This document shows positions 1 to 64,000 of a stretch of 64,000 nt of DNA, one piece after another (positions within the stretch are counted from its first letter, which is position 1; the number at the start of each line of letters is the position of its first letter). This DNA is from Lingula anatina (lineage: Eukaryota > Animalia > Brachiopoda), in the NCBI GenBank assembly GCA_051362555.1, contig CM120641.1, positions 49,110,401 through 49,174,400 on the forward strand, written 5' to 3'. Under the pieces are notes generated by a model. That model ran no database searches and was not told where the DNA came from. It worked only from the letters and a program-made list of their open reading frames with translations. Both the position numbers and the translations under genes were made by a program.

Positions 1-3000
1 TGAATTTGTAAAATTTATGTAAGGATATGATTCAACAGTGGCATGTGTCATTTGAATAGGGATAATAAAAAGTTCTCAAGATTGGCATGAGATAGAGAGT
101 GTGTTTTAAGGCAACTCCACCAATTCCATTGTAACTGTTATTATGTGTAAGATATAAAACCTTTCATTCATAAAGAGCACAGTTGTCAATACAACATTCT
201 ACAAAGAACTGTGAAACTTACGTCCAGAGCGTCCAGGGTGCATGTGTTCCCAGAAGCCACCAGTTTAGACACCCAGCGTATTGCGTCATGACAGGCGGAC
301 TCCGTGGCGTCCACCATCTTCTCTTCCCACTTCTCACAGGTGTGAGAGAAACGAATTAAGTTGAATCTGGACAAAATAGTAATAAGTAAATTAAGTGGGG
401 GACCACTTTTGTCAGGAGCTGAATAACACAAAGAAGTTTTACATGTAGCTTATCCATTTAGATTCTTTTTACTGAAAACAGTGGTGTGCACTATACATTA
501 TACTTCATTTGAAGAAACATATGACATGTTCAGTTTTATTTTGTGATTCCCACCCCTCCTAGCCTTCCCTCTCCTCTCCCTCCCCCTTCCATCCCATGAG
601 GCAACATTCTCAATGAAAAATGTAATTAATAATTGGCTAAAAGAAAAATGCTGTCCATGGCTCTTACTTTGCCCCCAGTTTATACAACTGATCCCATATC
701 AGAGATGCCAGCTCCTTCCTCAGTTCCTCCATATGTTGGTCCATAGAACCAGACGTGTCAATCAAGATGGCCACCCTCTTGTGACAGATCACTCCAAACA
801 CGCGACGGCTGCCTGCAATGGTGGACAAAAAGATATACACATACATTCTTATCTCCAGTGTGTAATAAGAAGCACTGTGAGAATCTCTTAATAGCACAGT
901 TTGTCATGCAATTCAATGTTAAGTACAGTAACTAGGTATGAGACAAGTCTACAAAATTTGAAAAAGCAAATTAAATAACTTTTCAACAGATGCATAAAAA
1001 TTTTTTGGCAAAAAATCTTTGCAATTGCAGCAACCATTTCACAATTATATATATGAACGATTGCTTTATTCAAATCAGATTCTCCCACTCCAAATTCTAT
1101 AAATGCAAACCTCTTGACAACATATATATACATATGTCCATAGATAGTGAGAAAACATTTAGCTAATCTGAAGTGATCCCAGACTTATCTTCAGTTACAT
1201 TGTATGTTACATAATTACAAATAGCTCCCCACAAGGAGTAAATAGCCTCTAACAATGTGAAAGATCTATGTGGTATCTATATGGGTACCTAGTGTTGGCA
1301 ACAGTTTGAGATCATGACCTCACAAATACTGCCATAAGCCATCATAATATAATACTCAGTTTAGACCAACAGCTTACCACTGAGCAAAAACTGCAGTCTC
1401 TTCAGGTACCTCCTTAGCACCTTCTCTAGCATCTCCTGGTACTCCAGGATCTCATGGGGTAACAGCTGCAGGTGCTTGATAGTACCCCCTATGTTCACAT
1501 GGGGAAAGATGTCACAGTACCTGGAAGGGGGAAGCATTCTTCAGTGAAAAAAATCATAGCTGAAAATTGGTGTAGGTATTGACTGTCACTGGCCTTGTAT
1601 AATAACATTAAATTTCTTTTAAAATTTGGTTTTTGACTCAAGATGCACAATTTATTGTGATGACAAAACATTTTTCATAATAATATTGTATTCAATGATG
1701 TATATTTTCTAAGTAACTTACTTTGCAGGAACAATCTTGTTAAGAGTCCTGACTTCTCCCTGAACATGTCTGCAGTCTTGACTTCCCACCAGCTTAGTCA
1801 GGTCCAGCTTTAATTTAGACAGTCCATACAGCCTCAACCACTGAGAGACAAAAGTATTGAATTATTACATCATAATATAATGGTCAGGTCCAGCTTTAGT
1901 TTGGACAGTCCACAAAAGTATTCTTTAACTGAGACAAAATCATTATGATAATCAAAGTATGAACTCAAGAAAGACACCTTATTTATAGGAAATTATTTAT
2001 TTTCACACACTTCCAAGACCATTATCATTACTCCAAAAAACTACAAGCAAGTATCAAAAGAATGGTTAATACGACTGACTGTGAATTATATTTGACATTT
2101 TCCAATTTACCAAAATAGTAAACAAACAGTGTTATTTTATGCAACTATAACTGATAAATAATCAACCAATATTACAAATAGTAAATGAAATTTTTCTTAC
2201 TTCTTTTGTTGTCATAATTTCTTCCTTTTCTGGTATCATTGCTAGTTTGATCTCCTTTCTCACAGACTTCATGTTAGGGTATCTTTTGAATACAACACCT
2301 ACACAAGATGAAATATTAATAAACACCACTAGAAGAAGAGTAAAGATACAAAACTCAGCTCAGTCTGAACAATACTAAAATCATGTTGTCACAATGCATT
2401 AAAGGGTCTCTAGTGCACAGTGAATATGTGGCATGGAGAACATCAGATGGAAAGTTAATCTTACACTGGTAAAGAGACTTTAAGACATAAAGAAAGGAAT
2501 AAATATAGGAAAACCCTTCCAATGACTAACAAGGTTGACTGACCTATGCCATTCTTATCATCTGTGTAAAACTGCTGTGTGGTTGTCTTCTTATATGTGG
2601 ACTTCACTTTCATCATGGGATCCTTGGCAGATGTTGGTCTGTTTCCTTTTGGTGCTTAAATAGTGAATATTTTTCATTGATCAAGAAATAAACTTCCTAT
2701 TTACATACCTTATAAAAGAAACTGAAACCTAAGACTTTAGGTATAAATGTGTCAAATCATTTCGTTAAAAAAATTGAATTTGTACCAAAATATACAGCAC
2801 TCTTTCTAATGTGAAAATTGTTTAAAAAAATGAAGTGTAGTGGTTGTGCTTGGTCAGCACACTTATTGCAATACTGACGCCATGTACTGACTAATTTGCT
2901 CTTAGAGTAAAAATCAAGTGTTTTAAAACAAGGGCTGTGGTTTTATCTTATTACAGCTGATTTCAATCAAACAACATGCTCCACATGACTTACGACTGGG

Positions 3001-6000
3001 TGCTATGCTGTCTTTGGCACTTGAGGGCCTCCAGGTGAGTGCTTTGGGGACAGACTCATCTTGGCTCTCAGATATTTTCTGTAAATGAATAAAAATACCT
3101 TAATACGCTGATGCTTTGTGAAGTTAATACAATTCAAACCAGAAAGATGTAAAGAACAAGCTCTGTGTTAGCATTGTGAGCCAAAGGCAATGAGGCACCT
3201 ACCAGTCTAGCCAAGGAGAGAGCATTCATCTTGGGAGGCGGGAGGGCGTTCTTGTTCTTGGATGGAGTGACACTAGAGGGCAGTGCCTGCAGTTGTTCTT
3301 CATAATACTCCAACTTAAAAAGGAAAACAAAAAATTCATATATCTATGCATAAAAAAGATGATACAAAATTGAAAAAGTTGTCCAATTTTCTGCGTTCAT
3401 TTTCTGGAGCATAAGTATGATGTCATGTTTTTTATCATATCTAAAATTCTACCACCAGTTTTACACACTTCCATATAAAAAATGCCAAAGCCTATTTCAA
3501 TTTTTATACCTCTTTTGCTTTATATTTCTTCTTTACAGACTCCACTAACATTGCACATTTCTGGGAGAAGTTTATTGCTCTGTCGATTTCTGCCAGAATT
3601 TCTTGAACATCATCACTTTCTATTACACCTGTAATAAATTAAATTAATGTTCAAACTGCTGCAGTTAGAATACCAGAAATTTTTCCTTTAATTATATGAC
3701 ATTAAAGCTAAATAATTTAATAGGCTTTATTTTTCAATTTCCAAACTAAAGATTTGAGGGGCTGATTTTATGTATTATCATAATATAAGACATTTCACTG
3801 CTTAACATCATGTTGCACTGAAGTTGTTAACATCATGGAAACAAAAAACAAAGAAATTGCACAAAAATTCTGTCACATGAAATATATGAAACCAATATAA
3901 TCCCTCAGTGAACTACCATCTCTATTACCTGTCTCTCTAAACCAATGAAACCTGCCGCCTGTGCTGTGAGCCAAATTCCTCAAGCTCTCTGCTGTCTTGG
4001 TAATGTTTGCATAGCGACCAGGGATAGCACCAGCACTGTCGTAGTCATCCACATTAAACAGGGCGGTGTGGAGCTTGATTCCGCGCCCTGAACACGATTC
4101 CTCCACATACTGAGCACAAACATCATGAGGTTGATCAGGAACACCACTGGTGAACAGGTAAACACCTTCCACCTCTGGAAAACAAAACAAACACCATGAA
4201 GTTGATCAGGAACACCGCTGGTGAACAGGTAAACACCTTCCACCTCTGAAAAACAAAACACACACCATGAGGCTGCTCTAAAACATGACCATGTTTCACC
4301 AACACTGGACAGAGATATCCTCTTGGCGACACTATCTATTGGATGAAACTGTTATTCCATGGGTAAAGTAATATACACTTATCCTGTGGATAAAGTAATG
4401 TTTTCTAAATACTAGATATTTATTTCTGTTTCTAATATTGTCATCCAGTTGATCAAATGGCTGCTATCCTCAGGATAACTGTCCAGAGGTTAGCAATTTT
4501 ATCCTGTTGTTGATGAAACTGGGTCTTGATTGTCCAAAATATTAAGAATACAAGCATATGTTTACATTCTGCAAATTTGTGATTATTTTACCAATGTGGT
4601 GTTTCAGTTCCTCTTCATTCTCCACTGTCATTCTGTAGGCCTCCAAGAAGTTTCTGCTTCCCCCACACTGCAGACCAAGAACCCACCTGGGAACAAATAA
4701 TGGAGTATTTAATCTTCTTCATGCTAAAGGACTTTTACATAACAACACTATTGTGTTCACTGTAATACATTGGTGAAATCATATTCATAAGTGAGATATA
4801 CTGTAGAAATTTGTTCACTGTAAGACACTGGTGAAATCATTGTGTTAGGTGGGATTAACTGTAGAAATTTGTTCACTGTAAGACACTGGTGAAATCATTG
4901 TATTCAGTGAAATATACTGTAGAAATGTGTTCACTGTAAAGACACCGGAGAAATCATTGTGTTAGGTGAGATAAACTGTAGAAATTTGTTCACTGTAAGA
5001 CACTGGTGAAATCATTGTGTTAGATGAGATAAACTGTAGAAATTTGTTCACTGTAAAGACACCGGAGAAATCATTGTGTTAGGTGAGATTAACTGAAGCA
5101 ATGTGGCTGTCTCACCTCCATGCACTCTGCAGGTTCTCAGGTGTAGGTTTTACCATTGTGGGCCTCCACATTTCAGCACGACTAGTGAAACTGAAATATC
5201 AAGATCAATATATCAGATCCTCCCAAAATGTTTTACTAGCGATTTATTCAATGCATATGAAGTGAACGTAACAAAATATCTTATTTGAAAAAAATTATTG
5301 AAAAATTGAGGTTTAAGTCAAGAAAAAAAAAGATCAATCACCTAAAAAGTTAACCATCTTTGCCTAGTCTTGGAAAAAAACTCTTAAATAAAGACATCAC
5401 TGTAAGTAGATTACCCTATAATGTTGAAGTATTCCCTGTTAGATATCTGTTGCTCCAGAAGCAGTCTCAATGAGTGCTGGATGTGAATTAAGTAGTTGGC
5501 ATTGGGTAGTGACAGATCAATGAGCAGAACCACACTGGAATAACAATAATATACAAATATGAAAGAAAAGGCTCAGAATAATATGACATCTAAATGATAT
5601 TTACATATGTTGTCTAAAGCTATTATTGTGAGTACAGAAATACTATAAACTTACATAGCTGACACTCATAGCAAAAGCTGACACCCTCTCTATAAATCTG
5701 TTACAGAAATAAATTTTCAGGTATACTAAAATTGCAGGTATCTAAACAGGGCCATGAAAACAGAAAAAATGTCATGTCATGATAAACAACTCACTTCTTC
5801 TCCACAATGCTCCCAAATATTTTCCTACTGCCAGAGGACAGCCATTCAATTCTCTTCTCAAACACTTTGACAGTGCTTCCTAGGTGTTTCTGGTACTCAA
5901 ACATCTGGGTGAGGTCCACATGGACATTTCTGACCGTGCCGTCCTGCCAGTGAAACTGTGCCATGGCTTTCTGCAAGGAGAGGAGACATTATACCATCAG

Positions 6001-9000
6001 GGAGGCTGAGAATATTCTCCACCAAACAAAACAACAAAACTTTTACTGTTTCAGTTTAATGAAAAACGATGAGCCAATGGAACTTAATTTACAAATAACA
6101 AGGAAATCTTTATATTCACACAATTGATGACAATATAAAACCTGTAATGACTGTGTACAGATATTATTCACCTTATATACGAAATGTACAGACATGTAAC
6201 AGGGGTATGAAGTAGTGTAATGGCTCCTTACCTCATGAACCTGGGATTGCACCGTTTTTCTTATCACTGGGATGAACTCCTCCTTGAAGGAATATGCATT
6301 TGGAGACAGAACTTGATACAGATCTAGATGTTTGGCTAAAAAAAGAAGAAAAACCACAAAGACTAACTTTTTTGGTCCTTAAGCTATTGATGATCCAGTA
6401 GAACCATCTTTATGATACAACTACTACAAACTTTTTTGTTTACAAAATACTACCTTTCAAGCCATTTTGTTTGAGCCATTCCTCTGATATTTCAGATACA
6501 ACTACAAACTTTTATATTTATAAAATACTACCTTTCAAGCCATTTTGTTTGAGCCATTCCTCTGATGTTTTAGCCAGGAACTTTGGCATCTCTATCCTCA
6601 GGGGGTTACTGTGCCCTGGGGGGCGGGGCAGAAACTGGGACTGGGGGACCTGGGTCACCTCCATTGATATCTGCAGGAGACATATATTACAGCTTTGGTC
6701 ACAATATTAACTATTTCTTGTTTAGCTAGGGGTTTCTTGGCTATATAATTTCTATATGGTGAGATGAGTTTAAATGGTATTCATAGAATTTTATAATTAA
6801 TTATTAACAAATAAAGTGGGTAATGTGAGTAAAGGTGTGTTAAAGAGTAGCATACCTCATTCTCAATGCTGACCAGTGCGTCACCCATCATTCCCTTCCT
6901 CATCTCTTTAATCTTGTTAATCACATCCTGGGCGTTCTTGATCTCCTTCAGCAGTAAGCTGATATCTGAGCCAGTGTAGATCTGTTCCTGATGACAGCAA
7001 ATGGAAAACACATTACTACATGGAACTACTCCATTTTTGTATATCTATTGCTATTTAATCTACTCCCCTATCACTGTACTCATTATTACTACTTTATCAT
7101 CTAACTCCATAATATAACCAGAAACAAATCATTTCTTGTTAGTTTTTTAATGATACATGTTCAGTTAAGTTTGTAGCATTGAATAATTTTTCTAAATTTT
7201 CCTAATGGTATTTATGGAGCATTGTTTAAAAAAAAACAAGCAAATGGGCACAATCTTTTAACTTTTCTTTAAATGTAATTAAGAAACACATACAAACATT
7301 TTATTTGCTTAATCCATTAATTTCTATATAAGCATGTATTGTGTTTCTCCCATAGTTGTAAAAATTAGTATCATCAGACTTAACCCTTTACCATTCACAA
7401 CTATCAAATTAAACACACAACAGAAGACACGCATCATTGTAGACAGAGTTAATGTAATCCTACATCTGTGGGTTTGTGAATCAATAACTTAATGTAGTGT
7501 ACTGGCCTAATCACCCTCTGCACTCTGGGCTATATTTAATCAATGTTCATTGACTGGAGTTTGTAATAATTAATAAAACCAATGATATCAAAGCAACACT
7601 CACCTCTGAAGTAGATGTGTAACAGTGATATCTCCCACGAGATTCAGCTGCTAGGGTCTTTAATGTCAGCTGTAAAGAAAAATTGCTGTATGGGCCACAG
7701 ATATTTACACGTATATATATATATATTTACACGTATATATTTATATTCTTAAAAATATACACATAGGTTCTTGATTTTTAATAAAAAGGAAACCAATATG
7801 TTGAATCATATAACACCAAGAGAAAAGTATAAAATCATCACAAGTTTTGACAACATTAACAGTAAGAAATGGAGGAAGAATGCAATTTTTACCAGCAAAT
7901 GTAATACATATGTATGGCCATATATGAAAGCAAAGTAATACAGACAAGCACTGTATGAGAGCTGTCAGAGTGTCTTACATTAGTGAGGTGGTTGCTGCAG
8001 TCAAATGCCACAGTGTGAAGAGGCTCATGTTTTCCTACCCCCATCTGAAGTATATAATCTGTCAGCACCTCAGAACTCTGATCAGGTCTGGAAAGGACAG
8101 GAAAACCAACCACATGTCATCAACAGTGATATTCCATTGACAAGATTCAGAGTATTTGATAAGTCAACATATATAAACTGTAATGAGTAAATAGAATGAC
8201 ACTGTACAAACACACGCAAAATGCACTTTAAAGTGATTTGTTTAACCTGGCAAAACAATGCACATGATAAGGCAGGTGAATAATTTGTACATACTTCATA
8301 CGGAGAAAATATTATGTTACCTGTGCACTAAAATACAACAACAGGATTTAAAATCATTTAAAACAAAAAATTAGATTAGTTACCAAATATAGATATCTAG
8401 CTGAATCTATTTGGGGGAGTTTGTGACTACTGTAAAACTTACACACTGCCCAATATCAGTACTATCTGGTTGATATGCTGTAAAACTTACACACTGCCCA
8501 GTATCAGTACTATCTGGTTGATATCCTGTAAAACTTACACACTGCCCAGTATCAGTACTATCTGGCTGATATGCTGTAAAACTTACACACTGCCCAGTAT
8601 CAGTACTATCTGGTTGATATCTTGTAAAACTTACACACTGCCCAGTATCAGTACTATCTGGTTGATATCATGTAAAACTTACACACTGCCCAGTATCAGT
8701 GCTATCTGGCTGATATGCTGTAAAACTTACACACTGCCCAGTATCAGTACTATCTGGTTGATATCCTGTAAAACTTACACACTGCCCAGTATCAGTACTA
8801 TCTGGCTGATATGCTGTAAAACTTACACACTGCCCAGTATCAGTACTATCTGGTTGATATCCTGTAAAACTTACACACTGCCCAGTATCAGTACTATCTG
8901 GCTGATATGCTGTAAAACTTACACACTGCCCAGTATCAGTACTATCTGGTTGATATCCTGTAGTCTATAGATGTGTTTCATGGCCTTCAGTAAGTTACAG

Positions 9001-12000
9001 CCTCCACTTGGTCTCAGGTTTGCTACAAAATCCTTTGCCTCATCAAGACTGAAAAAAAAATTAAATTTAAATGTGAACTATATTAAAACACTTTGAGTTT
9101 ATTCAGTATTGGCTGCCAACTTTGAGTAAATATGCAAATAACATTTTAGATATCTGGGTATATTTTCATTTTTTTTCTTTTTTGTTCTTTGCAATTAGAC
9201 CAATGATATAAATTATATCTCCGACTTGACATAATATTAGTCATTTGTCTTATTTAAGAGGGGGATTTATTTTTTATAAATGAACAAAGGCAATGATACA
9301 GAAATATGAAGGTATACTGCAACTTTCTGTTTCAGATGAAAACACAGACTGTGGCACTACTTACGTCCTGTGGTTGATATCTCTCACATGTTGCCAGCAT
9401 TTCTCCATGTCTGAACCAAACTTGACCAAGTACAGCTTCTGTTTCCCTGACAACTGCTCATCTATTAGGTGCTGGGGAATGAAGAAGACATTAAACTAAT
9501 TTACTGATTAACATCCTTTACAACATTACTTGTTATTGTAATTGCTTACGTCTGTATTAACTGACTTTTCTTCTGCTTGTTCACATGATACAGTATTTTC
9601 AAATTTTAAATATAAAGAGACATAAGTAAGTTTATGTAATGTATGAAACACATATATTGTGTAACTTGTTTACTGTCTGTTATGATGATTAACAGAAAAC
9701 ACATATCAAGAGAAGAGTCATTCTTCCAAATATCTTACAGAACATACTAAACATACTTAACAGAGAGTGGTTTATGATTTATGAAAATTCTGTAACATGA
9801 AATTCACCACATCTCCATTTAAAATACTCATTCAAATAGCTATACAAGCTTTACAAAGCATCCATTTCTGATAAATCAATTATATAACAGTTCCTGCTAA
9901 CCAGGAAGCTCCATACTTACAATCAGAGCCTCTTGGAAGTTGGAAAGACGACCAAAGCCACAGTTGGCATCTGAGGAATCAATCACCACTGCCACCTTGT
10001 TTCCTTTCACTAGTCCAAACGTCTTCAATCAAGACAAAAAATGATTGAATTTCAAAATAGACAATTTTATGACATCAACAATCAATAAACCATTCAACTA
10101 AATAAACAGGTTTTAGAATTCAATTCAGTAACAAAGTCTGCTAAAAACCATTAAAGTTACAATCTTCTGGTCTAAGTTTGTAACTCACTGACTAAGTGTA
10201 GCTTTTATACATACAGTATTTCTTACCCTTTTACTTCCATTCAGCATCCACTTGATTCTTTTTGTATAATGTTCTATTTGCCTACAAATGCAAAAAAAAA
10301 TCATAATTAAATTTGTTTTATAAACCTGACTTTATGTAATGACTATTTACAGGATGCAAAATTTATGCATTAAAATGGTGACAGAGACAATGCATTTAAG
10401 TACTAAAGTAAGCTTATATTCTGAACTTGTTGAGGACAAGGAAATACTCACATGTGCAACCTATATTCAAACTCATTGATGTCTTTGGCATCAAAAGTCA
10501 AATGTTGCTGCACCTTTCCAGTAGTTCTGTCATATGTTGGCCTAAATGACAAAATATTTAATAAATTACCACATGTTTACATTAAATGATAGCATCAGGA
10601 TTAAACAATAAATAGAAAGAAATATACCCAATAGTGCATTTGATTATCATTGATAGAAAATATGGTAGGTAAAACTTACTTTCCAGGTTTCCCCTTGGCC
10701 ACCAGGTCTTTCATTGTTAATTTGCTTTCTTCTACACTGTGGTTCTGAAGCCATTCTTCAGATGTTTGTTCCTCAGCTTTAGAAGCAGTATTGTTCTTCC
10801 CTTTCTAAAGAAAAATATAAAAAAAACACTTTTAGTGTTGTTCTCAAATTTTAACGTAAAATGATATGCTTTCTTGATACATGCCCACAAGCAGTGGTGC
10901 CTCAGAGCATCACTTAAAATTGTTCCTTTTAACAGCTTTTTCCCCTCTTTCAGAAATATGTTATAAATACAGATTCTTTTACACATGCATATATTTCTTA
11001 TTTTATCAGTCTCTTTATTGTAAAACCCAAACCACTAAGAATGCCTTAGAAATACCTATAAAAAGCTTTCATTTTAAATCATAAGATTAACAAGTATTTT
11101 AAACAGTTCTTGGATGAATAAATACCTGCTGAAAACACTGGCCTTGGATACTGTGAAATGAATGACAACTACTTACATTTAAAGACCATGTCTGATTGAC
11201 GTGTGTCACTGTCAGCTCATGTGGCTCTTCAGACTCTTCTGTATTCAAGAACTGCCATTCTGGTTTAGGTTCAATAGCTAGAAATGTCCTCCCCTTCTTC
11301 TTGGGTCTGGTATTAACATTGACAAGATACACATTTTAAACTGCATGTACTGCATGAAATACATTACTTGAACTTGTACATGTAAAATGTAAGTTTTTAT
11401 CATCAGTAGTGATTTTAGCAGAGTTTTGTGTTAGTTTCATCAGCACATATTAAACTAGGTACGTAATACCAGCCAGATATGCTTACATATTTTTTATCAG
11501 AATCAATAAAGAGAAAGAATAGTGGCCTGTAACTCACTCTAATGCCAATGCAAAAGCAGAAATGATACGTCAAGTTAGTTAATGGTATGACTGGAAAACA
11601 GCATTACATGACATGCATGATATACAGAATTGATATTGTTGATCCAACTTCACATACCATTACATTATCTACCAGTACTGGTAGGTACATGTAATATGAT
11701 ATTGGTATGGCCCATCTTTGAACATTACATGTGTCTGTTTAAAACTTACCCTGACTTTTTGCTTCGAACTTTACTCTTTCTTCTCTTTGCCCCAGGTTCT
11801 GAAGTATCACCATTTTCTTCGTTCAACCTAATATTTAAAAAAATTCAAAGAAATAAATTCATGGACATGTAAATTGTTATCAGTGAGTAAATTAGACCTT
11901 CTTAATGAAAAAATTAACACACATCTTCTATATCTTTATTTACTCTAACTACATGTATATACCGCTCTTACTCTGTAACCGACCTTTAATGTATCGATTT

Positions 12001-12030
12001 ATATGGGTTCTAGTAATACTGGCATAAATC

Positions 12031-12063
<33 letters not shown>

Positions 12064-12216
12064 AATGTAAGTATCTGGCTGATATTATGTACTTTGTTTA
12101 ATATGTGCTGACAAAGGTAAAATAAGACTAAAATCACTACTGTCTACTGGTGATAAAATCTTACATTTTACATGTACAAGTTCAAGCAATGTATCTCATA
12201 TACATAGAGTTAAAAA

Positions 12217-12251
<35 letters not shown>

Positions 12252-12266
12252 TGTGTGTATATGTGC

Positions 12267-12335
<69 letters not shown>

Positions 12336-12434
12336 TGCACCGATAGTTTAGTAAAAGACGTTTGAAAACACTGCCACTGCTTACTCTTCGTCTCCAATAT
12401 CGTCTTCTGTATCACTTGCTTCTGGCGATGACAT
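1..12434 (-). CDS. VWA3A: von Willebrand factor A domain-containing protein 3A-like, multi-exon; 3' end beyond window start
   Basis: GT-AG exons from probable ATG 12434 (MSSPEASDTEDDIGDE). Peptides VTHVNQT, KIFGSIVEK, VYLFTSGVPD, LAHSTGGRFHWF and VWA motif RVAILIDTSGSM resemble VWA3A as I recall it. Confidence 0.8.
4124..4272 (-). repeat. 71-bp x2 duplication spanning a VWA3A splice acceptor
   Basis: catgagg..ccacct|ctg recurs at 4124, 4195 and partly 4266; about 51 nt exonic + 20 nt intronic. Confidence 0.9.
4284..4528. mobile_element. MITE family A, degenerate copy
   Basis: Imperfect TIRs catgaccatgtttcaccaaca / tgttgatgaaactgggtcttg; interior (ttatcctgtgg, ctagata, ggctgctatcctca, actgtccagagg) shared with 61612-61871. 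Confidence 0.75.
4752..5098. repeat. About 59-60-bp intronic minisatellite, about 6 copies, no exon sequence
   Basis: Unit tgttcactgtaagacactggtgaaatcattgtgttaggtgagataaactgtagaaatt; stops about 15 nt from the donor of the exon at 5116. Confidence 0.9.
6415..6570 (-). repeat. 78-bp x2 duplication spanning a VWA3A splice donor
   Basis: aaaatactac|ctttcaagccattttgtttgagccattcctctgat twice; donors at 6530 (real) and 6452. Confidence 0.9.
8431..8960 (-). repeat. 48-bp x11 array spanning a VWA3A splice donor
   Basis: tgtaaaacttac|acactgcccagtatcagtactatctggttgatatcc every 48 nt from 8431 to 8911; top unit is the end of the exon encoding DINQIVLILGSV. Confidence 0.97.
12030..12331. repeat. (TG)n/(GA)n microsatellites in VWA3A intron
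   Basis: Dinucleotide runs at about 12030-12063 and 12217-12331. Confidence 0.95.
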
Positions 12435-14910: not shown

Positions 14911-17279
<2,369 letters not shown>

Positions 17280-21774: not shown

Positions 21775-21777
<3 letters not shown>

Positions 21778-21822: not shown

Positions 21823-21823
<1 letters not shown>

Positions 21824-21938: not shown

Positions 21939-36046
<14,108 letters not shown>

Positions 36047-44575: not shown

Positions 44576-44654
44576 AAAATGCATTTGCACATCTATTTAT
44601 GAAGCTGTATTTATAAAATGCATTTGCACATCTATTTATGAAGCTGTATTTATA
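44576..44654. repeat. 39-bp x2 tandem duplication between convergent gene ends
   Basis: aaaatgcatttgcacatctatttatgaagctgtatttat twice. Confidence 0.85.
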
Positions 44655-45125
44655 ATCTTAAGTGTTCGGAGAAATTTTGTTTTACAAGAAACTTTGAAAC
44701 AGCTGCCTTTATTTCTTATTGCATGTATAGCATATTAAACCAATGGTGCTTGAAACGCATCTTCATGATTGTCCATTTACTCTTTTATTTGTAATAAAAT
44801 GTTCTAAAATAGCTAAACAACAGTTTGTTGTTAATAAAATGTAGTAAACTAAAGTTTAGCTTGCAATCTTTTCACTGTTTCATACAGTCAGCTATTACAA
44901 CTTCAATCTGTAAGACAAATCTCTGCACTATAATATTTCAATAACTAATTTGACACTGTTACATTAAGTCAGCAGTGAACAGCAGTGACCCTGGGAATGA
45001 AACTGTCATTAAAATATGCACCACCTCACCAATTTATTACAGACAAAAGCTTACATTCAAGTTATAAATATTATTATATAGAGAATATTTATCAAGGAAA
45101 GTGTGGTTCTCTTCTCAATTGCCTA

Positions 45126-54000: not shown

Positions 54001-57000
54001 ATGTCAGGATATTATACCAAAAAGAAAAATAAGTCTTGTTCAATTGTTTATCACAGGTCACCATTTCAGTTATATTTACAATAAATTTAAATTGACTTGC
54101 ATGTTTTTATCCTTTCTACACAGCAGTTATAAATACACAAATTTAAATATTTAGATTGATGTTCTAGCTGACTTGTAATATTTCCAGTCTACTGATGTGA
54201 CAGCCTACAAACTGAAGGAAGAGGTAGACGAGGCAGGAAACAGACTCATGTTTTTGTTGGATTATGCTATATTTGAAGGTAAGAATTATTTTCCTGATTA
54301 TTATTCATTTCTAAGAGGTAAACTTTTGATTTTCTTATGTTTTTTTTTCTCCAAGAAATACTGAAGTACCTGAAACACAGTGTGTCCTGTGCCATGGTAT
54401 CGCCTCCCTTACTATATCTGCTCATTAATAAAATGTATGTTATTGTAGCTGAGGACTTGAAGATTAACAGCAAAGTGTTCAAGTGGCCCAAGTCAGTGGG
54501 TAAAGTGTTTGAGTTGGCCCAGGGACGTATCTCTAACAGACGGGAACAAGTCGAGGAGGCAGTCAGGGCCAAGACACAGGCCTTTGAACAGAAACTCACT
54601 GAGTACAACAAGGAAGTGGAGTCATTCCGCAAGAAAGAGGTATGGATTCTGAAGTAAAACATTCAAAAACTTCTTGGAAGAATAGTTACAATTTGCTACT
54701 GGTAATAAATCCATTAGTATAAATGAGGGGTCGTATTTATATCATTTTTATGGTGAGTATGAAGAGATAAAATTTTGTGCCTCTCTTTTTGTGCCAAATT
54801 GATTTTTGTTTGACTGAAATTATGTTGAAATATCTGTATCGTTTGACTTTGTTATTGACCTATGTTGTTCCTGTTACTGTTACAATGGTGTGTATATTAT
54901 ATTGTAGATTATGAGTCCAGAGGAGATGAAGAACAATGTGGAGACCCTGACCAAGCTTCATGACAACCTGGAGGCCGCACGTGATGAGCTGGAGGCCATT
55001 AATGAGGAGGAACGCCTGCTGGAGTGGGAACTGAGCACCTTCCCCATTCTACAGGCCATGTTCTCAGCCAAGGAACCCTATGATAAACTCTGGAAAACTG
55101 CCCTCAACTTCCACCAGAAGAATGACATTTGGACCAATGGTAGGTTGAAGAAATATATACAATCTGTAATGCACTATACATAATACTGCACTACACCATA
55201 GACAACATTTTACCAGATTGTCTTGCACTGGGGGTAGACCACCTCACCACAGAGATCCAAGCCTTACTGCAGACATTTTCATATAGATCTCATCAAAACC
55301 TTTTTACAACTGAAGCTATATGTTTTTAGTAGAACTATTTACAGAGCCAGTGAAACTATAAAGACAGTTATGGTTTTCAGGTCCATTCCTTGGTCTGAAT
55401 GCTGAGGAGATAGAGAATGAGATCAGTGATATGTACAGAACAATGCACCAGTTGACCAAGAAGTTTGCTGACCAGGCAGGACCTAAGAGGATTGCAGAAG
55501 CCAATAGGAACAAGATTGACAAGTTCAAGCAGAACCTGCCTATACTGCACACTATATGTAACCCTGGTATCAAGGACAGACACTGGCAGTTGGTGAGTAT
55601 ATTCCACATGTAAAACAAGTGTTGCTATAACAACTATATCCACGGGTGGGTGCCAGCATGAGGTCAGGATTTGTCACATGTTTAATGTTTATTATAGTAA
55701 TCATACAAATAAAATGCACATCATTGTACATAACAAATGTTTCCATGAGTGAGATATACACTGTGATTAAGTGCTGTATACAGTGGTGTCATAGTGCAGG
55801 GAATTATTATTATGGTTGCTTTCTATATTTGTAGATGAGTGATGCTGTTGGGATGAACATCAGACCAGAACCTGAGACCTCTCTTAACCAGATGTTAGAG
55901 TATGGACTGACCAAACACATTGAAAAGTAAGTTATTTTTTTCATATAGTACACACTGAAAGCACTATATTATCAGGATGAAGACAAAGAGGGTTATTTGT
56001 TTTATATGATCAAAATAATATTCTTTATGCTGTGCAATACACATATTGCTGTTTTTGACAAATTTTCATTTGATACGGTGTCATTGTTTTTCCACATCAA
56101 AGCTCTGACTCACATTTTTATGATCAGTTTATGTCATTTGTATCTTCCATTGTGTCTTGTCTTGGCAGGTTGGAAGAGATAGGTGGCGCTGCTAGCAAGG
56201 AGTACTCCCTGGAGAAAGCTCTGGAGAAGATGAAGTTTGAATGGCAAGATATGCAGTTTGAGTTTGTGCCCTATAGAGATTCTGTAAGTGATTCATTAGT
56301 TTGTTCCTATAGAGACTCTGTAAGTAATTCATTAGTATGTGTGTCTACTTATATTTCATAATTCTATAAGAATATTTCATTGTTCAGGAATTGTGGATGC
56401 AGAAGTTTTTGGGTAAATTATTGACAAACAATTTGGCAAGGAATAAAGTTGTGTACAGTAGTTAACATTTCACATTTCAGGGTGTGAGTATTCTAGCTGT
56501 CAGCAGTGGATGAGGTCCAGATGTTGCTAGATGACCACACTGTAAAAGATGTCCTTACAGTAGTTTACATATCATATTTCAGGGTGTGAGTATCCTGTCA
56601 GCAGTGGATGAGGTCTAGATGTTACTAGATGACCACATTGTAAAAGATGTCCTTACAGTAGTTTACATATCATATTTCAGGGTGTGAGTATCCTGTCAGC
56701 AGTGGATGAGGTCCAGATGTTACTAGATGACCACATTGTAAAAGATGTCCTTACAGTAGTTTACATATCATATTTCAGGGTGTGTGTATCCTGTCAGCAG
56801 TGGACGAGGTCCAGATGTTGCTAGATGACCACATTGTAAAAGATGTCCTTACAGTAGTTTACATATCATATTTCAGGGTGTGTGTATCCTGTCAGCAGTG
56901 GACGAGGTCCAGATGTTGCTAGATGACCACATTGTCAAGGCTCAAACCATGCAGGGGTCACCATTTGTCAAACCATTTGAGGCAGAGATGAAAGAATGGA

Positions 57001-60000
57001 CAGAGAAACTGCTACTTATGCAGGATATTCTGGACTCTTGGCTCAAGGTAGGTACTGAGATGTCTTAGTAGATTGTTTTTTTTCAAGTGTGTTTAAATTG
57101 AAGTTATATATATAACAATGCTGATTGGCTGTACCTGGAGCTTATATTGTAGTTGTTGTGATATGACACCCGGTGTGGCATGTAGACAATACATAGACTA
57201 ATACACTACATATCATGGTGTCTCTTTCTATTCAGTGTCAAGCCACCTGATTGTACTTGGAGCTATTTATATGATATAATACATATGATACTATTTCAGT
57301 GTCAAGCCACCTGGGTGTACTGGAAGCTATATATATATATATATATATGATATGATATTGTATATATGATATTATTTCAGTGTCAAGCCACCTGGCTGTA
57401 CTTGGAGCCTATCTTCAGCTCTGAGGACATCATGGCTCAGATGCCAGAGGAGGGCAGGAAGTTTGGTATAGTAGACAGCTACTGGAAGGACATCATGACA
57501 GAGTCTGTGAAGGATCCTCACTGTTTGGTGGCCACAGCTCAGAACAACATGCTGGGGAGACTGAATGAGTCCAATGTGCTACTAGAGGAGATCCAGAAAG
57601 GACTGAATAACTATTTGGAGAAGAAGAGACTGTTCTTCCCAAGGTAAGTCTGAGATATTAAATAACTATTTGGAGAAGAAGAGACTGTTCTTACCAAGGT
57701 AAGTCTGAGATATTAAAGAACTATCTGGAGGAGAAGAGACTGTTCTTCTCTAGGTAAGTCTGAGATATTAAATAACTATCTGGAGAAGAAGAGACTGTTC
57801 TTCCCAAGGTAAGTCTGAGATATTAAATAACTATCTGGAGAAGAATAAACTGTTCTTCCCAAGGTAAGTCTGAGATATTAAATAACTATCTGGAGAAGAA
57901 GAGACTGTTCTTCCCAAGGTAAGTCTTAATTCCCGAATGTCTGATGATATAAGGAGGGAAGTAACTACCTACACAAACTAGTCAGTGTTATGTAATGCCT
58001 GATAATGCTGTAGCAGAGAAGTTAGAGGTCTAGGAACATTAAATTAGTATATAGTAAATTATTAACTGGTGAGCCAAGTAAGATGATGAAATACCCTATT
58101 TGCAAATGTCAAGTTTTAGATCAGTAAAAATCAAGGCATCTGCTGGTATAATAGATCTGACCTTTGACCTATAATTTACTTAGGTTCTTCTTCCTGTCCA
58201 ATGATGAGTTGCTGGAGATCTTATCAGAGACCAAGGACCCGACCCGCGTCCAGCCTCACCTGAAGAAGTGCTTTGAAGGCATCGCCAAGCTGGAGTTTAC
58301 TGAGGAACAGGAGATTTTGGGGATGATCTCTGCTGAGAAGGAGACAGTGCCTTTTGTCAGTAAAATCGTACCAGCTAAGGCCAAGGTGAGCACACCTGTT
58401 TGAATGATTTCTGGCTAAAACGGTGCCATTTGTCAATAAGACTGTACCAGCTAGGTGCAGCATATTTTATTATTTATGGCTAAGGCAGATGTAGTATTGG
58501 CATCAGATTTATCTGTGAGTGTTGTTATATTATTAAATGCTGTTCAGGTTATAGTGCTGTGTATTTGTAGGGCATGGTGGAGAAATGGCTGATTCAGGTG
58601 GAAGAACAGATGTTAAAGAGTGTACGTGATGTGATCAGCAAGGCAGTCAAGGGTTACCAAGAGACACCAAGGAACAAGTGGGTATTGGAGTGGCCTGGTC
58701 AGGTTGTCATCTGCACCAGCTCCATCTACTGGACATCTGAGGTGACCGCAGCCATGAAGGAGAAGAATGGAATGAAGGTAATAGTTGTAGATACGCTGGG
58801 CTTCAATTAATGGAGTTTGCTGATGTAGCATATCCTCACTTCTTTGTAGATCACAAGGATCTGTTTTACAATCTGTGATGATAGAATTTGAAACATTCCA
58901 TTCTGTTAACTCGGGTTATATTGCTAATATTTGTACTATAAATTATTATTGCCATTAGCAACCTTACTGTGTTTTGAGTTACTGTCATATTTGATAATGT
59001 TCTCAAAAATACCTAGATATGAGAGTTAGTGTAATTTACAGAAGCACACGGACTGCAATATTGAACATCAAATAATGCCTAATTTGCAGAAATATCTAGT
59101 GAACAGTTTATAAACATGATTTCTATTGTTTATAGAAATACCTAGATAAGAGTAATGAGCAGTTGGTTGAGATAGTAGAGCTGGTGAGAGGGAAGCTGGA
59201 TGGGGGTGCCCGTGTCACCCTGGGAGCTCTCACTGTCATTGATGTCCATGGTGAGGATAAGATTTATATTGTTCTCCTTTTTTATCATTGATTTATATTG
59301 TACTACTTTCTTATCATTGATTTAGTTCTTATGTCAATTTGATCATTATTACAAAGTAACACATTGTATGAGTATTCAGCAGAATGCATTAATCAGGCTA
59401 GGCTAAAAATGAAAAAGAATCTTAAATGAAAACAATAAAATAAGCCATCTTAATCTCTGTATGTACATTTATCTTTCTAGCTCGTGATGTTGTCAGTAGT
59501 CTGGCAGAGAATAACGTCACCAGTGCCAATGCCTTTGATTGGTTGAGCCAGCTACGCTACTACTGGGAGAAAGATGTCATTGTCAGGATGATCACTACAG
59601 ATATTAACTATGGCTATGAATATCTGGGCAACTCTGCACGTCTTGTCATCACAGCACTGACAGATAGGTGTTACAGGTATATTTCTAGCAATAAACATAC
59701 TAATCTGTATTGAGTGTTAGGCAAATTTTATTAAGTTGTTTGTTTGTGCACATATTCATGTGGTATACAGTGTAAGTCAGTGTATTCAGCTAGTTGTTTG
59801 TGTGTGCGTGTGCATTTGATGAGTATATCCCTTGTCTTTCAGGACATTGATGGGCGCCCTGAAATTGAATCTAGGTGGCGCTCCTGAGGGACCTGCTGGT
59901 ACAGGGAAGACAGAGACCTGCAAGGATTTGGCTAAGGCTGTGGCTAAACAGGTAATTTAATTTGGCTAGGTTGATTTGGATAAGACTGTGGCTAAACAGG

Positions 60001-63000
60001 TAATTTAATGTGGCTAAGGCTGTGGCTAAACGGGTAATTTGATTTGGCTAAGGCTGTGGCTAAACAGGTAATTTGATTTGGCTAAGATTGTGACTGAACA
60101 GGTAATTTAATTTGGCTAGGGCTGTGGCTAAACAGGTAATTAGATTTGGGTAAGGTAGTGGCTAAACAGTTAATTAGATTTGGCTAAGGCTATGGCTAAA
60201 CAAGTAATTTGATTTCCTTATGCTATGAATGAACAGGCAGTTCAACACAATGTTACTAGTCACAGCTAACACAATCTGCTCTCTGTTTCAGTGTGTTGTG
60301 TTCAACTGCTCAGATGGTTTGGACTACAAGGCCATGGGGAAGTTCTTCAAAGGTCTGGCACAGGCTGGGGCCTGGGCATGCTTTGATGAGTTCAACAGAA
60401 TAGAGTTAGAAGTGCTGTCTGTAGTTGCTCAACAGATCCAATGTATTCAGCAAGCCATTGGCAACAGACTGAAGAGGTTCATCTTTGAAGGCACTGAGCT
60501 CACACTGGATCCCTCCTGCACCATGTTTATTACCATGAACCCTGGATATGCAGGGCGCCAGGAACTGCCAGATAACTTGAAGGTGAGTTCACCATGAATC
60601 CTGGATACACAGGGCGCCAGGAACTGCCAGATAACTTGAAGGTGAGTTCACCATGAATCCTGGATACGCAAGGCACCAGGAACTGCCAGATAACTTGAAG
60701 GTGAGTTCACCATGAATCCTGGATACGCAGGGCACCAGGAACTGCCAGATAACTTGAAGGTGAGTTCACCATGAACCCTGGGTATGCAGGGCACCAGGAA
60801 CTGCCAGATAACTTGAAGGTGAATTTATGTATTACTGTAACCAGGAGTCCATCTGAATATGTTTATGTGATAACTTGAAGGTGAGATCAGCTTCATATAT
60901 TGTACACCCACCTTTTACACCTTACAACACAGCTCTGTAGATTTATCTTTGGAAATCCATTCATCCAGTCCACTACATAGTACTCATTGTGTAATTGTAT
61001 GCTGTAGGTGCTGTTCCGTACTGTGGCTATGATGGTGCCAGACTATGGGCTGATTGGTGAAATCTCCCTCTACTCTGTAGGATTTGTAGATGCTAGGAGG
61101 TAAGACTGTGGACATACATCTAAACCACTATCACAGCTAACATGCCTTTGACATTGAATTATGAATACAGGTTTATTAAGATAGTGCTGTATGGTATTAA
61201 AAGCTCTCTTTATCAATATGTTGTTTAACATAGAAGTATATCTGATATCTGTTATAACTCTCCATGGTTATGTATTTCCATAGCTTGGCTGGTAAGATTG
61301 TTGCTACCTATCGCCTGTGTTCGGAGCAGCTGTCGTCACAGCATCACTACGATTATGGCATGAGAGCCGTCAAGTCCGTCCTCACTGCTGCTGGCAACTT
61401 AAAACTCAAGTACCCAAAAGAAGATGAGCCCGTCCTACTGCTCAAAGCTATCAAAGATGTCAACTTACCAAAGTTCTTGGCACAGGTTAGTGGCGGCTGA
61501 ATTGAGACTTTCTCTGTTTTATTTTCATTTATATTTTTAAGATTACAAAAGTAGACAAGCAGTATCTTTTGTTGTATTAATATCTGAATGTCTAACTTGA
61601 TTTATATTTATCAGTTTCATCAACATTGGATAGCGCTATCCACTGGATAACACTATCCATTAAGTAATATTGTTATCCTCTGGGCAATTATCCTGTGGGT
61701 AAATTAATGTTTAACAAACACTAGATACTTATTTTTGTCTCTAATATTGCTTTCAAGTGGTTAAAAGAGGCTGCTATCCTCAAGAAAACTGTCCAGAGGA
61801 TAACAATTCTACCCAAAGGATTGTGTTATCCATAAGATAGCGCTATCCAGTGTTGATGAAACTGGACCCAGGACCTGACCACGACATTTTATATTTATTT
61901 TTAGGATGTTCCACTATTTGAAGGAATCATCTCAGATTTGTTCCCAGGAGTTTCCCTGCCCAAACCTGACTATGACATTTTCCTGGATGCTCTCAGAGAC
62001 AACATTGCTAAGAAACATCTCCAGCCAGTGCCATGGTTTATTGATAAGATTATCCAGGTTTGTCACTTGTAGCATTGTCATGAAAACAGCTTTCCAAAAA
62101 TGTAACTGAGGATAGATGTATACTTCTATTCCAAATTTTATCAGTGGTTTGCCATTCAGATGCATTTACCCATTTTAAAAATTGGACTAAATTCTGTTAA
62201 CTGTGGCAGAGATTTTTAAAGAATGGCAGTATTTTATACTTGTATGTCTTTCTAAAAAAATTCTTTGTTAATCCTTAGGTCTATGAAATGATCCTTGTGC
62301 GTCATGGTCTGATGATAGTTGGTGAGCCTCTTGGAGGGAAGACGTGTTCCTACCAGGTGCTGGCAGATGCCCTCTCTGACCTCCATGCTGCTGGGATGAT
62401 GGAAGAGAACAAAGTGATGTACCGCATCATCAACCCTAAAGCTATCACCATGGGACAGCTGTATGGATGCTTTGACCCTGTGTCACATGAGTGGTCTGAT
62501 GGTAAGATGATGACTTCAACTTTCTTTATTACCACACTTCTACTTAACTAAAAAAACTTAAAGTGTCTAGTTCCTGTTAAATTGATTTAAGGTATGAACA
62601 TGTTTAATATCAGTGGGACTGAAAACAATGAGAGCTGTATGTGTCTTTTCTCAGGTGTTCTTGCCAACACATTCAGAGAGTTTGCAGTGAACCCTAGTGA
62701 TGACAGGAAGTGGATTCTGTTTGACGGTCCTGTAGACGCTGTCTGGATTGAGAACATGAATACAGTACTGGATGACAATAAAAAGGTGGGTAACTGACAT
62801 ATATTGACATATGTATACTGACACAACACAAGAAGACATGAGCACAAGTAACACAATATGATTGAGAACATGAACACAGCACTGGATGAGAATAAGAAGG
62901 TGGGTAACTAACATATACTGACAAAACACAAGAGCAAATGCATCCAAATGATTACAATATCACATCAAACACATTTTCTTACTTCCTTTCAGTTATGTCT

Positions 63001-64000
63001 AATGAGTGGTGAGATCATTCAGATAATTACAATATCACATCAAACACATTTTCTTACTTCCTTTCAGTTATGTCTAATGAGTGGTGAGATCATTCAGATA
63101 ATTACAATATCACATCTAACACATTGTCTTCCTTCCTTTCAGTTATGTCTAATGAGTGGTGAGATCATTCAGATAATTACAATATCACATCTAACACATT
63201 GTCTTCCTTCCTTTCAGTTATGTCTAATGAGTGGTGAGATCATACAGATGAGTAACACCATGAACCTGATATTTGAGCCAGCAGACCTGGAGCAGGCGTC
63301 TCCAGCCACAGTCAGCAGGTGTGGAATGATCTACCTGGAACCTCATCAGCTGGGATGGAAGCCCTCTAAGCAGTCTTATATGGAGCATGATCTCCCTAAG
63401 AACCTGACAGCTGATGAGTCTGGGATGGTGAATGATTTGTTTGAGTGGCTGCTGGACCCCTGTCTGGAGTTCCTGAGACATGAGTGCAAGTTCTACATCA
63501 ATACATCCCAGATCCACCTGGCCCGCTCCATGATGAGGCTGTACACCTGTCTTCTGGATGAGATAGCTCTGTCTGGTACTGAGGGACAGGAACAGTTAAC
63601 TAGCCAACAGGTAAAAGGATATTTTCACGCCAAAACTGTGACATCAGTTTTGATTTCTGAAAAAAAAAAAGGAATTATGTTTGGATTGCAAGGGTTTAAC
63701 TGATGTTTTAAAAACATTGACCAAGAATAAAACTTCCACATAATCTATGATTTTATGTTAATCAAATAATTAATGAGAAATCTCTGATAATCTGTGTGTT
63801 TCAGATCACCCTGTGGCTCCAGGGGTTGTTTTTGTTTGCCCTGGTCTGTAAGATAATTAACAATCTCTGATAATCTGTGTGTTTCAGATCACCCTGTGGC
63901 TCCAGGGATTGTTTTTGTTTGCCCTGGTCTGTAAGATAATTAACAATCTCTGATAATCTGTGTGTTTCAGATCACCCTGTGGCTCCAGGGGTTGTTTTTG
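48058..64000 (+). CDS. DNAH3: Axonemal inner-arm dynein heavy chain 3, multi-exon, 3' part beyond window
   Basis: N-terminal LPPLP..LYQ and [20 protein letters not shown] match DNAH3 as I recall it; [37 protein letters not shown]1 [26 protein letters not shown]2 [22 protein letters not shown]. Confidence 0.9.
50020..50110. repeat. 18-bp x5 intronic minisatellite just after a DNAH3 donor
   Basis: gacat(a/t)gtgttatgtgtg repeated. Confidence 0.85.
50930..51142. mobile_element. MITE family B, second copy
   Basis: tgcattcccatagattttagatcgatct / agatcgatctaaatctgtgggaatgca TIRs; flanks tga and tca. Confidence 0.88.
51324..51468 (+). repeat. 74-bp x2 near-perfect duplication spanning a DNAH3 donor
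   Basis: cactgagtttgagtccc..ctaagag|gtgagtta, donors at 51387 (real) and 51461. Confidence 0.95.
52333..52575. mobile_element. Diverged relative of MITE family B
   Basis: ttcccatagat start, tctcacta, gctta.atgtc, gcctacta, tctggaaatgg end shared with the other two copies. Confidence 0.6.
53184..53360 (+). repeat. 93-bp x2 diverged duplication starting at a DNAH3 donor (mostly intronic)
   Basis: g|gtttgaaa.caca..ttaaccaatgtttc at 53188 and 53281. Confidence 0.8.
53613..53693 (+). repeat. 39-bp x2 duplication spanning a DNAH3 donor
   Basis: aataa.gg|gtgagt.aactggaca.tacttttaatatgt, donors at 53621 and 53660. Confidence 0.9.
56270..56340 (+). repeat. 36-bp x2 in-frame duplication spanning a DNAH3 donor
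   Basis: cctatagaga.tct|gtaagt.attcattagt, donors at 56284 and 56320. Confidence 0.9.
56454..56936 (+). repeat. 98-bp x5 array spanning a DNAH3 acceptor
   Basis: atttcag|ggtgtg exon-like starts at 56481, 56583, 56681, 56779, 56877 (real). Confidence 0.97.
57120..57412 (+). repeat. Decaying copies of a DNAH3 acceptor junction
   Basis: ttcag|tgtcaagccacctg at 57236, 57300, 57381 (real); remnant tggctgtacctggagc near 57127. Confidence 0.85.
57606..57926 (+). repeat. 55-bp x6 array spanning a DNAH3 donor
   Basis: ctgttcttcccaag|gtaagtct, donors at 57644 (real), 57699, 57754, 57809, 57864, 57919. Confidence 0.97.
58347..58456 (+). repeat. Decayed copy of a DNAH3 exon end after the donor
   Basis: gtgccttttgtcagtaaaatcgtaccagcta vs gtgccatttgtcaataagactgtaccagcta. 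Confidence 0.7.
59925..60215 (+). repeat. About 34-bp x8 array spanning a DNAH3 donor
   Basis: gatttggctaaggctgtggctaaacag|gtaattt; real donor 59952; the last copies are degraded. Confidence 0.95.
60532..60886 (+). repeat. 59-bp x5 array (plus remnant) spanning a DNAH3 donor
   Basis: gataacttgaag|gtga at 60583 (real), 60642, 60701, 60760, 60819; remnant at 60881. Confidence 0.97.
61612..61871. mobile_element. MITE family A with long TIRs
   Basis: cagtttcatcaacattggatagcgctatc / gatagcgctatccagtgttgatgaaactg, plus subterminal ggataacac/tgttatcc and tgttatcctctgg/ccagaggataaca. Confidence 0.85.
62746..62935 (+). repeat. 114-bp x2 duplication spanning a DNAH3 donor
   Basis: gattgagaacatgaa.acag.actggatga.aataa.aag|gtgggtaact, donors at 62786 and 62900. 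Confidence 0.9.
62951..63249 (+). repeat. 75-bp x4 in-frame array spanning a DNAH3 acceptor
   Basis: ttcctttcag|ttatgtctaatg at 62993, 63068, 63143, 63218 (real); 25-aa repeat with no stop. Confidence 0.97.
63779..64000 (+). repeat. 83-bp x3 or more array spanning a DNAH3 acceptor (truncated by window end)
   Basis: gtgtgtttcag|atcaccctgtggctccaggg at 63805, 63888, 63971. Confidence 0.93.

Follow-up and report, generated by a model that had tools for sequence, protein, structure and literature searches.

Why do tandem repeats gather at the edges of exons? The question is raised by a 64-kb stretch of the Lingula anatina genome (Brachiopoda; assembly GCA_051362555.1, contig CM120641.1, positions 49,110,401 to 49,174,400, forward strand), hereafter the window, for which a preliminary description had reported about 30 arrays consisting of exon ends and their splice sites copied into the adjoining intron. 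Our analysis demonstrated that the arrays exist, that their placement departs strongly from random and that new ones continue to arise; the structure itself is already known. In all likelihood they are selectively neutral traces left by repair of DNA close to exons, and survive only when the extra copy falls in an intron. All statistics refer to this single window with 113 introns in seven neighbouring genes.

Tandem repeats were identified with Tandem Repeats Finder (TRF) and by a lag scan blind to gene structure (lags of 8-400 bp), whereas gene models were built from protein homology and reading frame without use of the repeats. For comparison, short-read contigs from four DNA runs (X1, X4, X6 and X7), with contig depth as a rough measure of copy number, and raw-read RNA runs carrying the same species label were aligned; RNA joints, contig joints and sample-only arrays are those among the matches listed. 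The lag scan yielded 39 local duplication clusters, compared with no match in three local shuffles. Spanning of an exon-intron junction was found for 31 of the 39, namely 30 at modelled junctions and the one at 63779 at an acceptor placed by tblastn, and TRF detected the arrays where the preliminary description had located them. With 18 arrays at donors and 13 at acceptors in 64 kb, junction-spanning arrays are the main class of minisatellite. Arrays are borne by 27 of the 113 introns and make up 16.5% of the intron bases, with unit lengths of 33-116 bp (median 62, 28 spanning arrays).

The eight clusters that do not span a junction comprise four inside introns, two in exons, one (41865) within an inserted element and another beyond the stop codon of the S28 peptidase gene. 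The only exonic duplications, at 22368 and 23274, are in-frame 24-mers in the poorly conserved tail of SYMPK. The preliminary description had named four arrays lacking exon sequence; three of them (4752, 25121 and 50020) are indeed intron-internal near a junction and the fourth (44576) lies past the stop, while a further intron-internal array at 59261 had been missed. Its view that the units are unrelated and do not form a transposable element family was borne out, as a self-similarity search confined to the window gave a distant match for only one of 36 arrays, and that match was the array's own displaced remnant. A transposon or Introner family was rejected on this ground. The arrays are listed below in window positions, junctions being given by their two flanking positions.

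1797-1912, minus strand: old acceptor-spanning duplication, period 86, junction 1840/1841
4116-4270, minus strand: acceptor array, 71 bp x2.2, junction 4174/4175
4754-5105: intron-internal array, 58 bp x6, 10 nt from donor
6423-6570, minus strand: donor array, 78 bp x1.9, junction 6531/6532
8430-8962, minus strand: donor array, 48 bp x11, junction 8922/8923, 5-nt microhomology
19104-19565, minus strand: donor array (DPY30), 81 bp x5.7, junction 19512/19513
24486-24773, minus strand: acceptor array, 61 bp x4.8; RNA uses exon-contiguous 24518/24519
25121-25220: intron-internal array, 33 bp x3, 34 nt from acceptor
26041-26423, minus strand: donor array, 48 bp x8, junction 26382/26383
26551-27040, minus strand: donor array, 63 bp x7.8, junction 26999/27000
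28452-28558, minus strand: acceptor-spanning array in run X4 only, unit about 118; single copy in the window
28717-28844, minus strand: donor array, 44 bp x2.9, decoy GT lost; RNA uses 28818/28819; also in X6
28983-29019, minus strand: acceptor-spanning array in run X6 only, unit about 60; single copy in the window
30006-30260, minus strand: acceptor array, 64 bp x4; RNA uses 30030/30031
32037-32277, minus strand: acceptor array, 61 bp x4, junction 32066/32067
32958-33108, minus strand: old acceptor duplication, period 87, junction 32992/32993
33920-34334, minus strand: donor array, 46 bp x9, junction 34290/34291; each unit joins 43-44 nt of exon to the donor dinucleotide
38883-39006, plus strand: old acceptor duplications, periods 33 and 88, junction 38991/38992
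40379-40709, plus strand: donor array, 34 bp x10, junction 40397/40398; remnant at 42866-42923
42921-43189, plus strand: acceptor array, 116 bp x2.3, junction 43124/43125
43739-43846, plus strand: donor array, 33 bp x3.3, junction 43756/43757
44576-44655: 39-bp duplication beyond the S28 stop codon, no junction
50020-50111: intron-internal array, 18 bp x5, 14 nt after donor
51324-51468, plus strand: donor duplication, 74 bp x2, 100% identical, junction 51386/51387
52284-52612, plus strand: old donor duplication, split by a high-copy insertion, junction 52322/52323
53183-53356, plus strand: donor duplication, 93 bp, exon part 5 nt, junction 53187/53188; bridged by X1 and X6 contigs
53613-53693, plus strand: donor duplication, 39 bp x2, junction 53620/53621; bridged by X1, X4 and X6 contigs
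56261-56341, plus strand: donor duplication, 36 bp x2, junction 56283/56284
56454-56935, plus strand: acceptor array, 98 bp x4.9, junction 56876/56877
57231-57408, plus strand: acceptor array, periods 64 and 81, junction 57380/57381
57606-57926, plus strand: donor array, 55 bp x5.8, 9-nt filler, junction 57643/57644
58347-58453, plus strand: old donor duplication, period 76, junction 58385/58386
59261-59324: intron-internal duplication, 29 bp x2, 11 nt after donor
59925-60215, plus strand: donor array, 48- and 34-bp units x8, junction 59951/59952
60532-60889, plus strand: donor array, 59 bp x5 plus a decayed copy, junction 60582/60583
62746-62933, plus strand: old donor duplication, period 114, junction 62785/62786
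62941-63249, plus strand: acceptor array, 75 bp x4, junction 63217/63218
63546-63614, plus strand: donor-spanning array in runs X4 and X7, unit about 82; single copy in the window
63779-64000, plus strand: acceptor array, 83 bp x2.7, truncated by the window end

In one case an intron is built almost wholly of such copies. The S28 intron at 40398-43124 consists of donor-array and acceptor-array copies only, besides a 2.2-kb insertion (about 40710-42865) which contains a 374-aa open frame without a Pfam match. The 34-bp donor array was divided by this insertion, and the array's remnant (42866-42923) adjoins the 116-bp acceptor array.

To compare this distribution with chance, arrays were collapsed to one unit and placed randomly in the gene bodies, with wholly exonic placements excluded. 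Thirty of the 34 arrays in or at modelled introns spanned a junction compared to 11.3-12.5 expected (p 1e-11 to 2e-10), which corresponds to a 13-15-fold excess in odds; the test omitted 63779 (its exon is cut), 22368 and 23274 (exonic) and 44576 (past the stop), and counting 41865 as intronic changed little (p 1e-10). The non-random placement asserted beforehand was hereby confirmed within the window, but the accompanying argument that intron interior far exceeds junction-flanking sequence was overstated. The median intron measures 282 nt (241-245 nt once arrays are collapsed), and as introns are so short, 33-37% of arrays are expected to span a junction by chance. This raised chance level favours an explanation without any mutational bias, according to which duplications are born evenly, selection removes those in exons, and those across a junction can be recognised for longer through their one constrained copy. 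Nevertheless, we regard it as very unlikely. Assuming spanning arrays to be 3 times longer-lived still gave p <=5e-4, and the excess faded only at a 5- to 10-fold persistence (p 0.008-0.02 at 5x, 0.2-0.3 at 10x), whereas one fixed copy would be expected to give about 2-fold. Furthermore, when arrays were limited to a TRF match of at least 94% and a unit of at least 30 bp, 14 out of 15 spanned a junction and none was intron-internal, and the three polymorphic arrays found in samples only, among those listed, span junctions as well.

The comparison samples showed that both the presence and the copy number of arrays vary. The three arrays at 28452-28558, 28983-29019 and 63546-63614, all junction-spanning, are present in some runs and single-copy in the window, and the depth of the bin 26540-26993 amounted to 650 in X4 and 33 in X6 compared with about 80-110 nearby. 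Array copies hold their own substitutions and many are decayed (e.g., 1797, 52284 and 58347). The arrays are old and ongoing, as had been concluded from the sequence alone. An assembly or polishing artefact is practically negligible as an explanation, given that short-read contigs of the four other DNA runs bridge arrays (25121, 50020, 53183, 53613 and 59261), connect unit to unit (28717) or pile up on arrays, and given the private substitutions and decay of the copies. At 58457 and in the bin 55437-56097, X4 and X7 showed a depth of about twice the background where the window is single-copy or carries a decayed pair; these spots may represent further arrays.

What, then, produces the excess? 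The preliminary description had proposed a mechanism aimed at splice sites. In the form considered here, spliceosome assembly, polymerase pausing or R-loops would expose single strands at exon edges during transcription and the resulting breaks would be repaired with duplication, possibly on nascent unspliced RNA. The 13-15-fold excess is in line with this proposal, and so are the four intron-internal arrays, none of which is more than 34 nt away from a junction (p 0.01-0.017) and three of which start 10-14 nt after a donor; no array of at least 30 bp was found in deep intron apart from the one in the inserted element. Several observations speak against an aim at splice sites as such. None of 113 junction 18-mers, with up to two mismatches allowed, was found as a spliced exon-exon joint in the genomic DNA, which argues against mature mRNA as template; mRNA-templated insertion was rejected for this reason. 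The position of the junction varies among units, with exon parts of 5 to 65 nt, and is compatible with a uniform distribution (Kolmogorov-Smirnov test, p 0.15 and 0.12); no fixed distance of the breakpoint from the splice site was observed. These data derive from an anatomy table of 28 arrays (17 donor, 11 acceptor), in which three exon parts were read by eye and which omits 52284 and 58347 (too decayed) as well as 63779.

Two further patterns argue in the same direction. The non-exon part of the unit is shorter at the 17 donors than at the 11 acceptors (median 17 nt versus 39 nt, p 0.018), a difference that matches the needs of each splice site and can be explained by splicing alone. The second pattern concerns exon length: 29 of the 77 internal exons with at least 100 nt bear arrays, but none of the 28 shorter ones does (7.7 expected, p 1.4e-4; p 0.005-0.05 at four other cut-offs), so that the splice sites of 28 short exons are free of arrays. 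Taken together, the missing spliced joints, the unfixed place of the junction and the array-free short exons fit a bias to exon bodies combined with selection at least as well as targeting. We therefore judge a splice-site-targeted, transcription-coupled mutation to be unlikely.

The structure of the joints could be read in 10 of 18 arrays, which showed overlaps of 1, 2, 3, 5 and 6 nt or fillers of 1, 1, 3, 9 and 24 nt; the remaining eight were blurred by divergence or truncation. No local template was found for the clean 9- and 24-nt fillers. Local templates considered for six long apparent fillers were rejected, since the matches turned out to be diverged end copies. Joints of this kind resemble those obtained in mouse embryonic stem cells, where end joining of adjacent nicks at engineered breaks generates single tandem duplications, some tens of bases long, whose joints show short microhomology or small inserts (PMC5730883); the available text of that study states no exon or splice-site preference, and its application to Lingula is an analogy.

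Because of the joint structure, the donor/acceptor difference, the short-exon gap and this analogy to nick repair, we favour an exon-biased duplication by end joining, followed by a selective filter and ordinary minisatellite turnover, a reading to which we attach an even degree of belief. Two nearby nicks or a staggered break would be filled in and joined, with the intervening DNA being copied once. At least one of the breaks would fall within the GC-richer body of an exon or immediately next to it, and would do so much more often than deep in the intron; this bias might underlie the observed excess. Selection would then purge wholly exonic copies unless they are in frame within loose protein regions, donor units would need a short intron head, acceptor units would keep an intron tail of about 30-45 nt, and copies next to short exons would be lost or never arise. 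Once two copies exist, they would expand and contract like any minisatellite, to which the depth differences between samples may be attributed. Consistent with the exon-body component, array-bearing exons are slightly GC-richer (0.50 versus 0.46, p 0.03).

A different origin could lie in allelic heterology. In a very polymorphic outbreeder, exons would be islands of allelic identity among divergent introns; repair between alleles would start in the exon, abort in the non-matching intron, and end joining would duplicate the boundary. Allelic divergence is strong indeed: within 1786 nt, one X6 contig shows 107 substitutions as well as 30 gap letters, and the loose ends of many contigs lie in introns. 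The host exon length of about 100 nt or more resembles a minimum homology length, and in several young donor arrays the intron part of the unit matches the flank for only 4-8 nt. Amphioxus, the other lineage with such boundary duplications, is also highly polymorphic. Nevertheless, the clean joints in the young arrays 51324, 33920, 26041 and 62951 need no second allele, and the human cases described below occur despite a low species diversity (PMC1557585), which leaves the heterology model quite unlikely.

Exon-biased end joining itself meets several difficulties. The break-and-repair step is inferred, and slippage on short homologies may be an alternative route of birth. The closeness of all four intron-internal arrays to a junction (at most 34 nt, p 0.01-0.017), with three beginning 10-14 nt after a donor, fits an edge bias better than an exon-body bias. 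The 100-nt exon cut-off was picked post hoc, and the array found only in X4 (28452-28558) sits on an 82-nt exon; moreover, the three sample-only arrays are a listed subset of joints. CpG density is alike in exons with and without arrays (p 0.56), and regucalcin is array-free, but with 8 junctions this gene is too small for a test. The RNA evidence is thin (271 and 174 reads), with joints covering three of the 31 spanning arrays, and the evidence base is a single 64-kb window. Exon CpG observed/expected ratios of 0.13-0.23 were obtained in array-bearing genes compared with 0.83 in regucalcin and 0.30 in EAPP, both array-free. A link between arrays and methylation is at most suggestive, methylation in Lingula being inferred from CpG loss and junction numbers being too small.

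More broadly, Lingula and probably other marine invertebrates might possess a germline process of mutation that is directed at exon edges and tied to splicing, transcription or the chromatin of exons, a reading which we put forward only tentatively. If true, such a process would have placed duplications on about a quarter of the introns and a sixth of the intron DNA, with new alleles still arising, and would represent a genome-wide natural assay of break positions and of spliceosome choice among identical sites.

How do transcripts cope with reiterated splice sites? At all three arrays with a listed RNA joint (24518, 28818 and 30030) the exon-contiguous site was used, at low depth, and RNA depth in two array-filled bins was 0-0.19. 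No RNA joint creating a new intron from a decoy copy, and no alternative splice, was found among the 13 SYMPK joints listed. In classic duplicated-site experiments, a site beside a full exon is reported to beat a site beside a truncated one. If the spliceosome generally takes the site joined to the whole exon, as seen at these three arrays, the array copies would be passengers. With only 271 and 174 aligned reads, minor use of decoys may still occur. Use of the nearest decoy would lead to a frameshift or early stop at 21 of the 26 arrays tested.

Decoys might also be retained for a function, as a means of tuning expression by way of unproductive splicing, as spare splice sites or as in-frame protein extensions. 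In favour of such a role, 92 of the 96 decoy copies found keep their GT or AG, the nearest decoy is in frame without a stop at 5 of 26 arrays, and some human pseudo-sites are used (6-16 and CBS; PMC1557585). The retention is uninformative on selection, however, as the probe favoured intact sites and arrays are homogenised. In addition, the listed RNA joints involve the exon-contiguous site only, RNA depth in the two array bins is next to zero, presence and copy number differ among samples, and unit lengths that are multiples of three are not enriched (13 of 28, p 0.16), so that in-frame selection was not found. A functional role of the decoys is highly improbable in view of these data.

Concerning novelty, the preliminary description knew of no earlier report at such density, but the structure has already been described in amphioxus. 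Tandemly duplicated exon-intron boundaries, known as mirages, are present in Adh3, the globins BflGb6 and BflGb9, troponin C and PGBD5, where they are length-unstable and leave splicing undisturbed; these reports call their origin unclear and mention somatic length instability for Adh3 (PMC3087553, PMC3902484). The Lingula window presents five of six features considered for a mirage, with units spanning the boundary, an involvement of donors as well as acceptors, splice dinucleotides reiterated in most copies, variable copy number and, at the three arrays with a listed RNA joint, normal splicing, much as in amphioxus. Unit sizes are 33-116 bp in Lingula compared with 10-72 bp in amphioxus Adh3 and 150-160 bp in the globins. 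In contrast to amphioxus, the host is a brachiopod, the arrays were measured over 113 introns (27 with an array) against a placement null, births are seen as polymorphisms, and patterns of donor versus acceptor and of exon length were obtained.

Related structures occur in human. Variable number tandem repeats (VNTRs) whose first unit spans the donor are found in F7 intron 7 (37 bp), CBS intron 13, LMNB2, PDGFA and 6-16, and in F7 the identical downstream donors are competent yet unused (PMC1557585). As in these VNTRs, the reiterated donors of Lingula are functional in principle and mostly silent, the most upstream donor being the one used in human. In that paper, however, the human loci are isolated and restricted to the donor side, whereas the Lingula arrays include both sides within 64 kb. 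Human segmental duplications likewise carry variable internal tandem repeats at exon-intron boundaries and have been discussed as a duplication route to new introns; similarly, boundary repeats such as those in Lingula can act as a source of cryptic splice sites and, in principle, of new introns (PMC2812944). A literature search covering few subscription journals yielded neither an account of these repeats in Lingula nor an enrichment test at the scale of a genome. New are the brachiopod host, the measured excess at junctions, the ongoing birth, the acceptor units being richer in intron than donor units, and the absence of arrays from 28 short exons.

Mirages had previously been anecdotes from a few amphioxus and human genes, whereas here they are the main kind of minisatellite; the value of the window is their density together with testable patterns bearing on the origin of mirages. 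Two questions thereby become testable in one genome with existing data, namely whether short tandem duplications favour exons or exon edges, and by which rules one of several identical splice sites is picked. For the latter, the donor/acceptor difference and the absence from exons below 100 nt are direct leads. Such arrays can also cause errors in gene prediction, in exon-primed markers and in the assembly of short reads.

The genes of the window are as follows; protein homology and Pfam upheld the names VWA3A, DPY30, SYMPK, S28 peptidase and DNAH3 given in the preliminary description.

222-12434, minus strand: VWA3A, 28 coding exons within the window, which does not reach the 3' end of the gene
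14911-17279, plus strand: regucalcin/SMP-30, CpG-rich and array-free, used as control gene
18632-20887, minus strand: DPY30, 4 coding exons
21939-36046, minus strand: SYMPK, 33 coding exons
36464-44131, plus strand: S28 serine carboxypeptidase, 11 coding exons
45126-47126, minus strand: EAPP, 5 coding exons, without arrays in the window
48058-64000, plus strand: DNAH3, 34 modelled exons, continues past the window end

The VWA3A model is 99.7% identical, without gaps over 1067 aa, to Lingula anatina protein P0146, and one VWA3A exon of 86 aa matched Lingula anatina VWA3A with 100% identity over 95% of its length, all remaining matches being at most 80%; amphioxus was rejected as the source of the DNA on this basis. 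The DNAH3 model is 60% identical to protein P0008. Pfam supported DPY30, S28, EAPP, regucalcin and the dynein motor domain (five of six stretches scanned), and all 13 SYMPK RNA joints among those listed agreed exactly with the gene model. SYMPK (model of 1473 aa) carries a long, charged, low-complexity C-terminal extension at 22343-23456, the exons of which are backed by RNA joints.

Within EAPP, a 9-bp coding repeat at 45260-45291 lacks one unit in run X6, and a contig of X7 links 46778 back to 45162, which points to a possible tandem duplication of 1617 bp with both breakpoints in coding exons. Run X1 showed nearly zero cover over 44861-50800, whereas X4 and X7 cover the same stretch; this may reflect a divergent or missing haplotype or filtered records. 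DNA contigs that jump DNAH3 introns (57464-58185 and 58276-58575), with unknown letters between, probably derive from paralogous dynein genes.

The region 12001-18000, which holds regucalcin and no minisatellite, is CpG-rich (observed/expected 0.65-1.04 compared with 0.1-0.3 for most of the window) and contains a 320-bp inverted dispersed repeat (14045-14365 and 16523-16844). Short, high-copy and partly palindromic intronic elements resembling miniature inverted-repeat transposable elements are located at 50930-51137 and 39670-39879, at 52365-52540, at 61612-61864 and 4293-4504, and at 19842-19963, with DNA-run depths reaching several hundred thousand.

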